A stretch of DNA of 64,000 nucleotides. Source: a virus (lineage: Duplodnaviria; Heunggongvirae; Uroviricota; Caudoviricetes). The position numbers are program-made. This document shows positions 45,001-51,000 of this stretch, one piece after another. The stretch lies in IMG/VR virus record IMGVR_UViG_2541047938_000006; one strand, written 5' to 3'. Position 1 is the first letter of the stretch, and every line of letters starts with the position of its first letter.

Positions 45001-48000
45001 AAAGCCAGACTTAATGCAGCATGTGCAAGAGCTCTGAAAACAAAGGTATGGCGTCTGTCAGGTATTAAATCGATCCTGGAAAAAGGTCTGGATAAACAAC
45101 CTGTTCAGGATCCAAAACCAGATCTGTTATCCACGATGGAACACGAAAACGTACGCGGCAGTGAGTATTACCACTGATACGGGATCCAATGATGAATCAT
45201 CTTTACGAACAACTGACCGCACTTAAACTCACCGGCTTCCGTGATGCGCTTAAAAAGCAACTTGCTCAGCCGGGCACATACCAGGAGCTGGGCTTCGAAG
45301 AACGCCTGTCATTACTGACAGCAGAAGAACTAACCTGCCGTGAAAACAGGAAGGCAGAGCGTCTGATCAAACATGCACGGTTCAGACTTAATGCTGAGTT
45401 ATCAAAGCTGGATTATCGTAACAATAGAGGGCTGGACAGGGCCCTCATCCGTTCACTCAGTCAGGGAAACTGGTTAACCCTGAAACAAAATATTTTACTG
45501 ACCGGGGCCACCGGCAGCGGTAAAACGTTCCTGGCATGTGCACTTGGTCATAATGCCTGCCGACAGGGATACAAGGTCTACTATTATCGCCTTAAAGCGC
45601 TGATGGAACAGTGCTATCAGGGGCATGCTGATGGAAGATACAGCAAACTTTTGACCAGGCTGAATAATAGCGATCTGCTGCTTCTGGATGACTGGGGGCT
45701 GGAACCTCTCTCATCAGAACAGCGTAGCGACCTGCTGGAAATAGTGGATCTGATGTACCAACGAGGCTCAATCATCGTAGTGAGCCAGTTGCCGGTGGAA
45801 AACTGGTACAAAATGATCGGAGACTCCACACATGCGGATGCCATCCTAGATCGACTGGTTCATGGCAGTATCAAGATCGAACTTAAAGGAGAATCAATGC
45901 GGAAAATACAATCTCCGTTGACCGAAGGAGATCAGTGAAGGTAATTTAAAAACGGTTCTGTGAAAGTGACACGAACCGATCTCCATCGATGTTACTCACC
46001 GATCTCCTTCACGGTAATACGCAGTGTCACCACAAATCCAGGGCACCAGAGAAGGAGAAGCACCAGCGCACTGACCGGATACTCCCGCCAGGTCAGAACG
46101 GTATTTTTCCACCATGGCATCAAACATGGCGGGCTGACTGGCGTACGCTCCCTGTTTTAAATCAAACTCGCCCTGCATCCAGACAACACAAAGTAGTATG
46201 TTTTTGGGGTTTGCCTTCAGCGCGGCCTGAGTGCGTGTCAGCAGGTCTTTATACAACGGCTTATCAACGCCCCATCGTTCAGATTTATCCGACGCTCCTG
46301 AACTTTCACTGAACGTTCCGTCAGCACCGGCTGTAAACGCAGAGCCACCACGACAGCACGGCACTAACAAAATACCCGCATTTTCCGGCATAAAGGGCAA
46401 CAGCTTTTTGGCAATATGCAATCCCTGTCCGACACACCCATACTGCTCTGCGCTGGCTTTCGGATGAGAAAAACGGCTCAAATCCTGCACATCATGCAGG
46501 CAGTGGTCCGCCGGAATGATGTCGTTATATGCACAGGCCGCACCACCCGGTGTCACCGTACTGCGACGCGCCAGCTGTTTAATACGCGGGTCCGGACGGT
46601 CATATGTCTCCGGCAGCGGCAGGCCTTCACCATACGCCATGCCGTTTGACTGTCCGGCCAGCGCAATGACAAAGTAATATTCTGGTTCAACAACAACAGT
46701 CCGGGTACCATCTCCCCCCGGTGAAACTACCGGAGAGGTCATATCCCCTTCAGCGACTATAGCCTGGATAAATTCAGCACCATAACCCGCGTTTGAGATA
46801 ATCGGACTACCATAGGGTTGCCAGCCTTCCTTCAGTTTTTGCGTCAGTTTTCCTGCGAGGTCTGACGGCGATGATGCCCTGACCACGTCATAGTGTTTAA
46901 ATGCCATTATTCCTCCCGGCAGGGATAGTGTATGCAATCAAGATAAGGTGCGGGCTGACGTCAGTCATGGACAAGGGTTCAGAAACAGGAGGATGACTAC
47001 AGCCCGCAATACGAAAAAGACCATACAGTTGCGCAGAGTGATTACTATCAGGTATTATTCGCCAGCTGAAAATTGATCACTTCACGTTTTGTTGTTTATT
47101 CCTTGCCACCCGCGCTTCCCGGCGCGGGCTTTTTTTTATCCAACAAGAAAGCCCCTCCGGAGAGGGGCTGGAGAGTAGCGCTATGTACCGTTCATGCATG
47201 GTGCAGGGTGCCTCCCGGTGAGTTCAGTATCAGCACCTGAACCCGCACCAGAAAGGATAAGGGGTGTGACCAAACACCTGTCGCTGATATGCCCCTCCGC
47301 ACAGGGGGATTCACCATGCCATATTTTTTTAACAAACTTCCCGCTGGCCAGACAATAATCGCCAGCCTGAATTGTGAGTAACGTGGCATTTTACGGGAAA
47401 ACTGTTTTCTGCAGTAAAAAGGCCCGCCGGAGCGAGCCTGGAAGGATAGCGGTCATGTGATGCCGGTTTCCCGGTAACTCAGCATCGGTATCTGAGTCAA
47501 CGTTTTCTCTACTGGGTCATTTCCGATACGTTCCGCCTTCCGGCAGACTTTCATCACGTCAGAAAATATAGCACCCTGAGTAACAGGACAGTACTCAGAA
47601 TTCAGGAAACTGTGACACATCCTGCACAGAAAAGCCCCTCCGGAGAGGGGCTGAAGTATAGCCTAATTTCTGTCTGTCGCATGGTGCCAGGTGCCTCCCG
47701 GTAAATTCAGCCTGGCTACTGAATTTGCATGTTCGCTGGATCATACACTTTGCCAGATGCCCCGCCGCTGAGGGGGATTCACCACGCGATGCAATTTTTA
47801 ACAAATTCTCCGGCAGCCAGACAATCATCAAGCTGTGGAATTGTGAGGTATTTAAAAATTTCGCAGCCTCTTGCCACCCGCTTTTCACAAAAATCGTATG
47901 TAGAAGGCCGCAGCGTAACTATCACTGATGAATTCAGGACACCCAGAGGCTACGGCTCAGTTTGGATTGTGGCGGCCGGAATCGAACCAGCTCCCATCGG

Positions 48001-51000
48001 TGCGCTGCCGATTACAATACGCGCGGCGATCCGCTACATGACTAGTATTTTCACAGTCGCCTGTCTGCTAGCTCGCCATTGAGCTTCACCACAACGATAA
48101 GAGCACTGCGCACACCTTTCACCAATTCCACGAGGTCTGCGGGTTCAATGCTCTTACCTGTTGTGCAAACAAAAAGCCCCGACATTTCTGCCGAGGCCTT
48201 TACCTAATCTAGCCAGTATGCCGATCCTAAATATTATCGACGACCGAGGTAAATCAGGATTTCTCTTTCGCTTCTCAGTGCGCTTTTGCTCCGAGCATAC
48301 ACAAAACATACTACTTTCATTTCTCGAAAGCAACGCATTTACAAAAAATATTTTGCATCATCCAGCAATCACTAGAAGTTCTTTCTCCAATTCTCGCTTC
48401 ATTGCATAAAACATTTCTGAATCAAGGACCCTCTCGCACCACACGACCCGCCTCCGGCAATACTGAATATCAACTCCTGTTATCTGAGAAATCATCCTGG
48501 CGATATCTTGCGTGCTGTCGCGATTGCAATATCGCCTAATAGCTACATCACGGACAGGGCTTTCACGATGAAAGGTCTCAACCATCACACGTTCAACGAA
48601 AGCAGCATCATCGGATTCTTTGGCGAGAGCAATGATATTACCTGCCGATGACTGAGGGATGACCAGTTCTCGGGCTTTCTGATGGAGTTCATCTCCACGT
48701 AGTCCGTCTTCTTCATACAGACGCATGACAACAGACTCAATCTGCTTAGCTTTGTCATCGCTCCACTGACTGCGAATCATCAGTCGCCCAATAACGTTAA
48801 TTGCACCACAAGGAGAATCATCACCAGCGTTAACATTTCCCCATACCTGTAGCATGTAGTGAACCCATGCTTTCTGACGAGAGTTAATGATTTTCTTCGG
48901 ATGCCTCCATATGCGGCGGAAATGAGCATCATTAATAAAGTTAACCATGCCGAATACTGGGGTTAGCCGCATCACAGCCCCCATCCTTTACAATGACACC
49001 ACACTTCAAACATTCGTTTCACAACTTCACGGCAGTAGAAACCGTCAGCATCACGTGTCAGGTCATAGCGATCTCCGTGCTTCAGTCTCATATAGCATTC
49101 GAATAATCTGTTCATATACTCTTCGCCATGAACTCCGCTATTACGCTGCTCATGCGCTTTTCCAGACGACCTGAATAAAGCCATGCGTTCAGGCACCTGC
49201 TGAATATCACGCATCAGTAGCTTTCCCCTTATCCCATCCACGATGAACCATAAGGACACCGTTGACGACGGCGTGCCGTTTGCCTTCTTTATCACCGACA
49301 TATTTTCTGACCGTAGCACGATTACAGTTCAGTTTTCGTGAAACTTCAGTCATATTGCCTCGTGCCTGGATAAGCAATTCCGGTATTGTTTGAATTGTGG
49401 CGTTCATATGTTCTCCAGTTCGGTGATTTTTATCCCCACTCTACCGCCAAGCACTTTCACGCCGCGAATTACGCGAATGTCATCGAATTGCACGTCGTCT
49501 TCCGCAAATCCGGCGTGGATAAGAGAGTCGAGTAAACCTTTCAGGATGTTATCGAGGTCGCGACGGCGGGAATCTGGTGGTTCAGCAATAATTGTGATGC
49601 GAAGTCGTGATTTAGTGAAAATGTCTAATCTGAGTTGCCGGATGATTTGCTGTACGTCTTTTCGGTATTTCTGGCCTTTATCGCTGATGTAGTACTGGCT
49701 TCCCCGTCTTCGCCAGTAGGTATTCACCGTCGGCGGCCAGGGAAGCACAAACTCATATTCATTCATGACTTAATCTTCCCCTCCTTCAGCAATATCGCCA
49801 GCGTCCTGATCACGCCTTCCAGGTGGTAAAGTCTGGCGTCGTTGTTGTCGAGAATGCGAGTACGGCGATCGATTTCATTATGGCAGTCACTACAGGCCCA
49901 TGCAGCCAACAGATCATCTGGCTTTGTTCCCGTTCCGCAAATTCCAGCCATTCGGTAATGCGCCAGAACTGTAGTTTCAGGGTTGCCATTGCATACGCCA
50001 TAAATCCGTACCTGGCATTCTCTGCCGCGCGCTTCTTTGCGTAGGTTTGTCATCATCTTATTCCTCATGCAGTAGGCTATCCGGAGTGACAATTAAATCT
50101 TGCTCGACGCCTTAGCCACCGGATATCCCACAGGTGAGCCGTATAGTTGAAGGTTTTAACATCAGATTCTTTGGGGACTGGCCTGGGTTTATTTCGGGAG
50201 CGTTTGGTTGGAAGGTAATTGCAGTTTTCACAGACGATATCGGTGATGCTTCGTCGCTGTCGTCTCATTCGTACCTCCTGTCGGTAAATCTGACACCCTG
50301 ATCCACGGCCCAGGATGTTGTGTACTCAATCAGGCTTGCCATACGCTTCACGCTCATTTGCGCACTGCTTTCGCGGATATTGACGTATTCACCTTCAAGA
50401 CCTGGCAAAACATCAGCTTCCTGTTTTGTCGCCACGGCATGACCGCTTATTAACAAAACTTTCCACTGTTCTGGTTTTAGCCACCTGCCGCACCACTTAA
50501 CCTGGCGGGATATATCAGCGACCATCGCGTGAAATTTTGCATTTTGAGCGAGATTACGCTTGTAATCGGTGATACGGATCGTAACGGGTTTGTCTTTATC
50601 GAGAGTTGTTGCAAGGATGGCGTTAATGGCGAATTGTTGCTGCTGCTTACTTCGGAGGAAGATAGTCTGGTTCATTATTCCCTCTCACTGGATTTTCCCA
50701 ACAAAAAAGGAGCCGAAGCTCCTTTAGTTTCAGAATTCAAATTGTCTTGCCCGCAGGCTTTTCAGCATTGGCATGGCCCGCTGGATAACGGAACTTGACA
50801 TGTCGAGACGTGTTACCTCCCTTAGTAGCGCGTCTCTGTTCTTCGTCACCATGTAGATGGTCTCAAACGCAATGTCATACAGCTTGTTCGTGTATGAGGA
50901 GTTCAGCTCTTTCATAATGGGATACAGGTGTTTGCTGAGGTCCTGGGCTTTTTCCATCCAGAGCTGCATGTAGCAAAGGAGGATGATTTCTTCGGCTGTG

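Follow-up and report, generated by a model that had tools for sequence, protein, structure and literature searches.

The window analyzed here is a 64,000-nucleotide (nt) stretch of DNA from a virus of the class Caudoviricetes (IMG/VR record IMGVR_UViG_2541047938_000006). Our subject is the interval of about 1.2 kb between its Q-like late antiterminator gene and nanS-p, and above all a 127-nt tRNA-shaped RNA that is encoded within it. The late region of the prophage is the minus strand, on which the Q-like gene, the interval features and nanS-p are read. The initial annotation, made from the sequence alone, had marked the interval as a block of structured noncoding features, and these lie where it had placed them and are far beyond chance, with 11 terminator-like sites in a terminator scan against 1.4 expected. 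It had also compared the position with that at which Shiga toxin (Stx) phages hold tRNAs and stx, and the equivalent interval of an Stx2a phage, which comprises Q, a methylase, three tRNAs, stx2A, stx2B, one STnc100 copy and nanS-p, agrees with this. The features are listed below.

48358-48984, minus strand: Q-like late antiterminator gene, 208 amino acids (aa; PHROG 753, "anti-termination protein Q-like", E 3.5e-68).
48167-48197, minus strand: tR′-like intrinsic terminator, a hairpin GGCCUCGGCA-GAAA-UGUCGGGGC(U) followed by UUUUUGUUU.
48094-48107, minus strand: conserved 14-nt 5′ leader AGUGCUCUUAUCGU, which resembles boxA (GCUCUU(U)A).
47967-48093, minus strand: 127-nt tRNA-shaped RNA (Rfam tRNA model 26.5 bits, gathering score 29; own covariance model 135.4 bits).
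48041-48046: hexamer ACUAGU in the apical loop of the long arm of this copy.
47862-47966, minus strand: 3′ trailer and spacer, common to phage HK75 and to lambda 44936-45039.
47624-47817, minus strand: STnc100 copy A (138.7 bits, E 4e-32, model positions 1-206; terminator 47652-47633).
47413-47588, minus strand: divergent STnc100-like copy B (30 bits, E 3e-4, under the gathering score of 47; terminator 47439-47420).
47139-47348, minus strand: STnc100 copy C (129.9 bits, E 8e-30, model positions 1-206; terminator 47169-47150).
47029-47138 (conserved block to 47145), plus strand: convergent mini-unit made up of TTGCGC, an 18-nt spacer, TATTAT, about 75 nt and the terminator CCCGCGCUUCCCGGCGCGGG-U8.
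45996-46907, minus strand: 5′ part of nanS-p (DUF1737 and SASA domains), truncated by an IS21-family insertion.

The minus-strand GGTTCGATTCCGGCCGCCA motif, first described as a tRNA-like remnant, is indeed tRNA-like, since it forms the T arm and the 3′ acceptor strand of the 127-nt element, but the element to which it belongs is complete. The Rfam tRNA model aligns with the acceptor, D and T arms, and a 74-nt insert replaces the anticodon arm. In the window copy, the acceptor stem is UGUGGUG/CGCCACA, a D arm is present, the T arm is GCUGG-UUCGAUU-CCGGC and the long variable arm is AUCGG-CAGCGCA-CCGAU, while the anticodon stem widens into an internal loop (ACAG/GCGCGUA) followed by an arm of about 10 bp. 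A single-sequence fold of the window element was uninformative (z −1.2), and the structure was obtained by comparative analysis of 81 distinct homologs, of which 80 are full length; a first alignment contained 49 distinct sequences. The consensus has a 7-bp acceptor stem, a 4-bp D stem with the loop AAUGGC, a canonical T arm, a 4-5-bp anticodon stem leading to an asymmetric internal loop (5′ strand AUAG, 3′ strand GCGCGUA), a long arm of about 10 bp with an 18-nt loop, and a 5-bp variable arm with the conserved loop CAGCGCA. The anticodon stem corresponds to alignment columns 26-29 paired with 78-81, and it leads into the internal loop and the 10-bp arm in all homologs; a 7-nt anticodon loop is absent from every one of the 80 distinct sequences, which are 125-128 nt long.

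ARAGORN, run with default settings and in transfer-messenger RNA (tmRNA)-only mode, reported no tRNA and no tmRNA in the window element, and together with the Rfam scan it detected no intact canonical tRNA in the interval. A tRNA interrupted by an intron was considered and rejected: ARAGORN with introns allowed and otherwise default settings found nothing, and lowered thresholds gave calls that contradict one another, namely Lys(ctt) with an intron of 77 nt, Arg(gcg) and Val(cac). The element therefore falls short of the gathering score of the tRNA model, of ARAGORN detection, of a 7-nt anticodon loop and of the tmRNA test, and what it keeps of a canonical tRNA, upheld by covariation, is the 7-bp acceptor stem, the D arm with GG and the T arm with UUCGA.

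In the alignment of 49 distinct homologs, standard pairs occupy 93.3% of cells, against 82.3% in shuffled alignments and 31-48% when the pairing partners were slid. Twenty pairs are changed on both sides, a number reached by none of 500 shuffles, and these double changes affect 9 of the 10 long-arm pairs and 4 of the 5 T-stem pairs. RNAalifold independently yielded an identical cloverleaf. The wider set of 81 sequences adds compensatory changes in the acceptor stem (UGUGACG/CGUCACA, GGUGAUG/CAUCACC and UGAGGUG/CACCUCA). Position 16 of the D loop and position 59 of the T loop also covary (U-U in 38 sequences, C-C in 38, G-G in one, with three exceptions); these positions are neighbors in the tRNA elbow, and the covariation is as expected for an elbow contact, although shared ancestry could contribute to the correlation. 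Strand-specific G·U pairs are numerous in the long arm, e.g., at columns 42-61, where 27 of the 49 sequences have U·G, and show that the minus-strand RNA is under selection. A pseudoknot joining the GCGC segments of the internal and variable-arm loops was rejected by eye, because changes of G to U at column 90 and to A at columns 71/73 are uncompensated; the conserved GCGCGUA and CAGCGCA loops show no mutual compensatory pairing. The degenerate tRNA genes proposed in the initial annotation do not fit an element that is complete, whose every helix covaries in 80 distinct homologs and whose non-tRNA arm is conserved. On this comparative evidence, the element is a genuine structured RNA whose tRNA body has no anticodon loop.

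BLAST searches identified the 127 nt together with about 15 nt upstream as a discrete unit, 71-92% identical among phages that are otherwise unrelated at the locus. In HK75 it lies between the annotated tR′ and the holin gene, in the P22-like phage BIS08P22 directly upstream of the N gene, and in the Salmonella siphophage Skate it precedes an annotated, same-strand tRNA-Ile by about 100 nt. Another carrier is Pantoea phage PdC23. Exact-pattern scans for homologs matched at least 120 viral contigs, 58 metagenome contigs and 4 of 185,579 species-representative genomes, the last being Klebsiella pneumoniae, Enterobacter intestinihominis, Superficieibacter electus and one metagenome-assembled contig labeled Cellvibrionaceae. 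Of 5426 complete E. coli genomes, 175 carry the element, in every case on the chromosome and in none with an annotation. In Rfam scans it fits no family beyond the sub-threshold tRNA match, it is unlisted in GenBank/RefSeq annotation, and no description of it was found, by sequence or by topic, in the openly accessible literature searched. From sequence comparison it looks like an undescribed enterobacterial phage RNA family and a new family of phage tRNA mimics.

Most copies of the element occur in one of three settings, with a few loci having other neighbors, and the neighboring genes are Q and holin, cI and N, or tRNAs. In the late-leader setting it is found downstream of three unrelated Q families and tR′, and upstream of a holin gene or, in the window, of the STnc100 array. 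In the tRNA-cluster setting, canonical tRNA genes follow on the same strand, 6-100 nt away, in 7 of 125 loci; in the non-lambdoid phages Skate and PdC23, the element lies within true tRNA clusters with no N or Q context. In the N-leader setting it is located between nutL, with recognizable boxA and boxB, and the N start codon, and ends 26-31 nt before the ATG. Here base pairing between the 5′ leader (..GCUUUGGGG) and the 3′ trailer (CCACCAAAGC..) adds about 10-12 bp with one bulged A to the acceptor helix, and this extension covaries, e.g., GUUGCUUUGGGA/UCACCAAAGCAAC and GUGAACUUUGGGA/UCACCAAAGUUCAU. A corresponding helix was sought in the late-leader and tRNA-cluster copies, including that of the window, and rejected (z about 0), so that the helix is confined to the N-leader class. 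The lack of this helix, the lack of an encoded CCA and the variable discriminator base together suggest that maturation may differ between contexts. Late-leader and tRNA-cluster copies instead share the 14-nt leader, with the consensus AGUGCUCUU(U/A)(C/U)CGU, which is kept beside the element in otherwise unrelated upstream contexts and also occurs in the lambda late leader; its likeness to boxA is one of resemblance only.

The same flanks can enclose different RNA. One N-leader locus (L008) has flanks that equal the lambda N leader except for two substitutions, comprising nutL, the stem base (GCUUUGGGGUGUG… / …CACACCACCAAAGC), the ribosome-binding site and the first N residues, and in it the tRNA-like core takes the place of the apical ~95 nt of lambda. 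The L008 copy folds singly into the cloverleaf (−66.7 kcal/mol, z −5.3), and the predicted fold of the lambda N leader has −51.4 kcal/mol (z −3.6). Homology of either the lambda N-leader apex or the lambda late-leader core to the tRNA-like core was rejected, since our model matches the closing stem only. An unannotated, stem-closed element of 82 nt lies in the lambda late leader between tR′ and S (NC_001416 44859-44940, equal to L306:460-541). It has the 14-nt leader, the closing stem (with the compensatory change UGUGCUG/CAGCACA) and the trailer of the tRNA-shaped RNA, around a different, 65-nt core that is not tRNA-like, and locus E212 has yet another, third type of core in the same position. 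This suggests that flanks and stem form a conserved slot for exchangeable RNA cores, of which the tRNA-like core is one occupant. In 100 further loci the STnc100 terminator and the nanS-p leader block are present and the element is absent; 10 of these carry, about 550 nt upstream, a 73-nt tRNA of ordinary type. Phages L and Sf6 are reported to have real tRNAs where the late operon begins (PMC8022706).

The apical loop of the long arm contains a hexamer that is self-complementary at one alignment column in all 49 sequences of the first alignment and then in all 80 distinct full-length homologs. Six versions occur among the 80: ACUAGU (42), UCUAGA (18), UCGCGA (13), GCUAGC (3), UCUGGA (3) and UCCGGA (1), compared with an expectation that 1.6% of random hexamers are Watson-Crick self-complementary. 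Outer and inner positions both change with compensation, and UCUGGA, whose self-pairing depends on G·U, is the intermediate that would be expected in RNA on the way from UCUAGA to UCCGGA. The predicted self-duplexes have energies of −3.6 to −8.7 kcal/mol. A canonical helix formed by the nucleotides flanking the hexamer was rejected, as the opposed positions are mostly G·A, A-U and A·G. Beside the hexamer lie GAA on one side and (U/A)(G/C)UA on the other, which is reminiscent of a bulged-G or loop-E motif. Because a 6-nt palindrome cannot fold on itself and the flanks form no standard pairs, the pairing would be intermolecular, and the simplest reading suggests that the hexamer pairs two copies in a kissing-loop homodimer. 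The dimerization initiation site (DIS) of HIV-1 is a 6-nt self-complementary kissing-loop sequence in a hairpin loop, with variants that differ by lineage; as in the DIS, the element has a self-complementary hexamer in a hairpin loop, kept through compensatory change in 80 of 80 homologs.

Between the tRNA-shaped RNA and nanS-p lie three related units, as first reported. An Rfam scan of the whole window identified two of them as STnc100 (RF02076, gathering score 47 bits), and a more permissive scan added copy B. Copies A and C belong to the family, scoring well over 47 bits along the whole model, and copy B falls short of this but retains the STnc100 terminator and central hairpins. The GCCCCTCCGGAGAGGGGC hairpins had been taken as the starts of the units; they are instead their minus-strand 3′ intrinsic terminators, with GC-rich stems and U-runs. 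Upstream of copy A is a promoter-like TTGTCT-N18-TAAAAA, read by eye from an alignment, and when the units are aligned with the Stx2a copy, an upstream block with a −35/−10-like pair, TTG(T/C)CT and TAAAAA separated by 18 nt, is seen by eye to be kept, which suggests that each STnc100 unit is a gene of its own. Copy C is collinear with the STnc100 copy located 75 nt downstream of stx2B in the Stx2a phage.

By sequence, the three units are tandem members of the STnc100/EcOnc27/PasD family of prophage small RNAs (sRNAs), and the family is already known. Thus sRNAs are present in the pR′ region as initially proposed, and the Rfam match makes them known rather than novel. In strain EDL933, 11 STnc100 copies have RNA-seq reads and one was confirmed by northern blot (PMC5331693), an overlap with EcOnc27/sRNA103, an sRNA bound by Hfq, is seen for the copy that follows stx2B (PMC12711010), and a 2026 preprint relates STnc100 to PasD, whose place is between Q and the sialate esterase gene (bioRxiv 10.64898/2026.05.13.724894). 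Expression and Hfq association are established for family members in EDL933, Sakai and enteropathogenic E. coli (EPEC) (PMC5331693, PMC12711010, bioRxiv 10.64898/2026.05.13.724894). By analogy, the copies described here would be ordinary members of this Hfq-bound family, acting in trans by base pairing. Like STnc100/EcOnc27/sRNA103/PasD copies elsewhere, they are bounded by Q (or stx) on one side and by the sialate esterase gene on the other, and they share placement and terminator hairpin with those of enterohemorrhagic E. coli (EHEC) and EPEC prophages and Stx2 phages. Unlike in STnc100/PasD loci as published, the window has three tandem copies within 700 bp, one of them divergent; published surveys describe Pas copies that are dispersed, not tandem. 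The tandem three-copy array, seen also in a few other phages (H2-H5), would be the sole, modest novelty of this part of the interval. A relation of the repeats to IpeX was rejected, as the quuD-nmpC-essD region of the K-12 prophage DLP12 contains neither STnc100 nor any other Rfam match. Neither AsxR, AgvB nor Esr41 matched in the interval (E up to 1) or, at the gathering threshold, in the Stx2a locus. A scar left by loss of a toxin cassette, also considered initially, finds no support. Copy C, the hairpin and the nanS-p leader match the region downstream of stx2B in the Stx2a phage; homology starts about 40 nt upstream of the STnc100 match, and no stx sequence is found on the window side.

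The strong plus-strand terminator first reported at 47109-47138 is borne out, with an 8-bp stem containing seven GC pairs followed by T8, and it stands tail to tail with the terminator of copy C. It closes the convergent mini-unit, whose putative promoter at 47029-47058 was read by eye, with a weak −35 that is under the scan threshold. Across 52 distinct sequences (116 loci), conservation of the mini-unit block is 90% or more, whereas the neighboring nanS-p leader varies, and in locus L226 homology ends just upstream of the mini-unit −35. The predicted product of about 77 nt has a U-rich single-stranded body and a terminator; the U-rich body and eight-U terminator are features shared with many Hfq-dependent sRNAs, and, as an antisense RNA, the product would lie opposite the far 5′ leader of nanS-p. 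The mini-unit has no Rfam match and its sequence was not found in the searched literature. From these sequence features, it may be a candidate small RNA of about 80 nt.

The tR′-like terminator has a folding energy of −18.9 kcal/mol (z −3.8) and aligns with the annotated tR′ of HK75, and from its position we infer that it acts as tR′. A Pfam search with the Q-like open reading frame (ORF; 48984-48358) gave no match; in Escherichia phage PhiR5_2, which is 100% identical to the window across the 1.5 kb tested, the Q-like gene comes after ninH/rusA-type genes. The full-length architecture of the interval is also present in 17 of 5426 complete E. coli genomes. The initial statement that the interval lacks a convincing ORF holds: the two longest in it (117 and 97 aa) match nothing in Pfam and overlap structured RNAs. 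These ORFs (47729-48082, plus strand, and 47595-47888, minus strand) overlap the tRNA-shaped RNA and STnc100 copy A, and most likely are not genes; the GenBank record of PhiR5_2 has two hypothetical proteins called within the interval. The nanS-p start codon (46907) was placed from an alignment with the Stx2a phage. The IS21-family element in nanS-p (43636-45938, plus strand) carries genes for IstA (513 aa, with rve and Mu-transposase C domains) and IstB (249 aa; E 2e-67), and beyond it lies the nanS-p C-terminal ORF with DUF6645 (43455-42346); nanS-p is uninterrupted in PhiR5_2. Elsewhere in the window, Rfam matches at 51458-51656 on the minus strand (C4 antisense RNA 75.1 bits, isrK 75.8 bits, c4 a1b1 target 46.9 bits) mark a P1/P7-type antisense immunity module, near which the PhiR5_2 annotation lists an antirepressor gene, a higBA toxin-antitoxin pair and ninB. 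An sRNA-Xcc1 match (4036-4124, plus strand, 69.1 bits, gathering score 53) is distant from the interval.

Taken together, the interval is probably the untranslated start of the late operon on the minus strand, packed with RNA genes that include an undescribed tRNA-shaped family. After the Q-like gene, the order would be the tR′-like terminator, the 14-nt leader with the tRNA-shaped RNA, the three STnc100 genes, the convergent unit and the nanS-p leader. The same element recurs behind three Q families, in the nutL-N leader and beside tRNAs, and therefore behaves as a gene-like unit. It retains the parts recognized by tRNA-processing enzymes, i.e., the 7-bp acceptor stem, the GG D loop, the UUCGA T loop and the elbow, and recognition by such enzymes is plausible but not assured. 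The tRNA-shaped RNA would be co-transcribed from pL or pR′ and excised by host enzymes from the early or late polycistronic transcript: free-ended copies, like that of the window, would be released by RNase P and 3′ trimming, and N-leader copies, in which leader and trailer are paired, would be cut by RNase III. Excision would, as a by-product, also detach the message downstream from the nut or tR′ leader that precedes it, as happens in lambda through RNase III.

The tRNA body would yield a stable RNA and the conserved long arm would be its functional end, with two molecules joined through the hexamer as a kissing-loop homodimer that would act in trans on a host factor binding tRNA-shaped RNA. 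The trans role that we favor is that of a decoy or titrator of a host tRNA-binding protein; it might serve as a decoy for tRNA-cleaving defense nucleases, or titrate RNase P or a tRNA-modifying enzyme. We put forward only tentatively the general form of this proposal, in which there would be a class of tRNA-shaped RNAs that are excised and form two-headed kissing-loop homodimers acting in trans on a host protein, with the stem-bounded slot, in lambda too, serving as a landing pad for exchangeable cores.

Several points weigh against this interpretation. Everything past the structure of the tRNA-shaped RNA is inferred, and even for the structure, many of the sequences are closely related, so that cell counts overstate the number of independent events. 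In the window copy, leader and trailer form no helix (z about 0) and CCA is not encoded. The discriminator base can be A, C or U, position 8 has A in place of U, and the D loop is short, at 6 nt. The apical loop, in which the kissing interaction is predicted, is large (about 18 nt). Lambda and E212 hold cores that are not tRNA-like, so the flanks and stem might be the functional part and the core dispensable. The STnc100 promoters were read by eye only.

The most serious competing explanation, although rather unlikely in our estimate, is that the element is solely a cis-acting processing or structural signal, i.e., an exchangeable apex on a conserved stem that guides cleavage by RNase III or RNase P, after which the released RNA has no function of its own, much like the hairpin of the lambda N leader or mascRNA on MALAT1. 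Leader, stem and trailer do recur with unrelated cores in the lambda late and N leaders and in E212, the element is always found in transcribed leaders, and the leader-trailer helices of the N-leader class covary. A cleavage signal, however, needs neither a conserved internal loop (AUAG/GCGCGUA), nor a conserved variable-arm loop, nor a self-complementary hexamer in six versions, and the element also occurs inside the true tRNA clusters of Skate and PdC23, away from any N or Q. It is far less probable that the hexamer and its arm constitute a DNA-level site, such as a restriction-type site or a palindrome to which a dimeric protein would bind. Each of the six hexamers is a palindrome of the type II restriction kind, and four of the six contain CTAG, but a protein site would be expected to hold one sequence, not to switch between ACTAGT, TCGCGA and GCTAGC while keeping self-complementarity alone; TCTGGA is self-complementary only through G·U, that is, as RNA, and the flanking arm is rich in the strand-specific G·U pairs noted above (U·G in 27 of 49 at columns 42-61). 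A decayed or insertion-disrupted tRNA gene, i.e., a pseudogene from the tRNA cluster of related phages, would account for the occupancy of a tRNA slot, the Rfam tRNA score just under threshold (26.5 vs 29 bits) and the lack of an ARAGORN match, but is effectively excluded by an "insert" that covaries best of all (9 of 10 long-arm pairs changed on both sides), a length held at 125-128 nt across 80 distinct homologs on unrelated phage backbones, the lack of any homolog with a 7-nt anticodon loop, and the mutual inconsistency of the relaxed ARAGORN intron runs.

We compared the tRNA-shaped RNA with known systems. It resembles the late-operon tRNAs (ileZ-argN-argO in Stx phages, Asn and Leu tRNAs in phage L) in slot, strand, acceptor, D and T arms, and the GG and UUCGA motifs, and it sometimes adjoins real tRNAs; it differs from a canonical tRNA in its 127-nt length, the lack of an anticodon loop, the A at position 8 and the 6-nt D loop, and in encoding no CCA and having a variable discriminator. 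The lambda hairpin between nutL and N, known as the RNase III processing site of the N leader, shares with N-leader copies an almost identical stem base, upstream nutL and N ribosome-binding site, whereas its apex is unrelated and not tRNA-like, and the window copy lies in a late leader without the extended stem. The T4 species 1 and 2 RNAs (rnaC and rnaD) are likewise phage RNAs of about 120-140 nt in a tRNA cluster, those of T4 being stable, and rnaC has a tRNA-type T arm; their architecture is different and they have no palindromic loop. Specific homology to them was rejected, as our model scored rnaC at 14.5 bits against 13.8-22.8 bits for ordinary T4 tRNAs and gave no full-length match to rnaD.

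The bacterial Y RNA YrlA is a tRNA mimic bound by Ro/Rsr. N-leader copies resemble it in having a tRNA-like body on a long 5′/3′ helix, including a bulged A, unlike the window copy, which has no closing helix; no Y-RNA-type Rfam match to the element was found at E up to 1-10, and E. coli K-12 is not known to have a Ro protein. In the case of mascRNA, a tRNA-shaped module is cut from the longer MALAT1 transcript by tRNA-processing enzymes (PMC8457004). The likeness is confined to the proposed mechanism of excision, giving a flanking RNA and a small tRNA-like RNA; mascRNA is eukaryotic, unrelated in sequence and has no dimerization loop. The HIV-1 DIS is similar in its lineage-varying, self-complementary hexamer in a hairpin loop, and different in that the loop of the element has about 18 nt rather than 9, the RNA is small and tRNA-shaped rather than a genome, and the dimer here is predicted. 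In its predicted combination of a full tRNA body with a dimerization-type loop, the element appears unlike all of the tRNA mimics compared.

The element sits in two much-studied lambdoid regulatory regions, the pL-nutL-N leader and the pR′-tR′ late leader, and whether it acts in cis or in trans, tRNA finders and annotation pipelines now miss it. If it is cis-acting, the lambda N-leader hairpin would be one of several interchangeable modules, which would offer a direct route to test how leader processing sets the expression of N and of the late genes. If it dimerizes and works in trans, phages would encode a tRNA mimic of a new type, with a bearing on how they manipulate or evade the tRNA-directed enzymes of their hosts.

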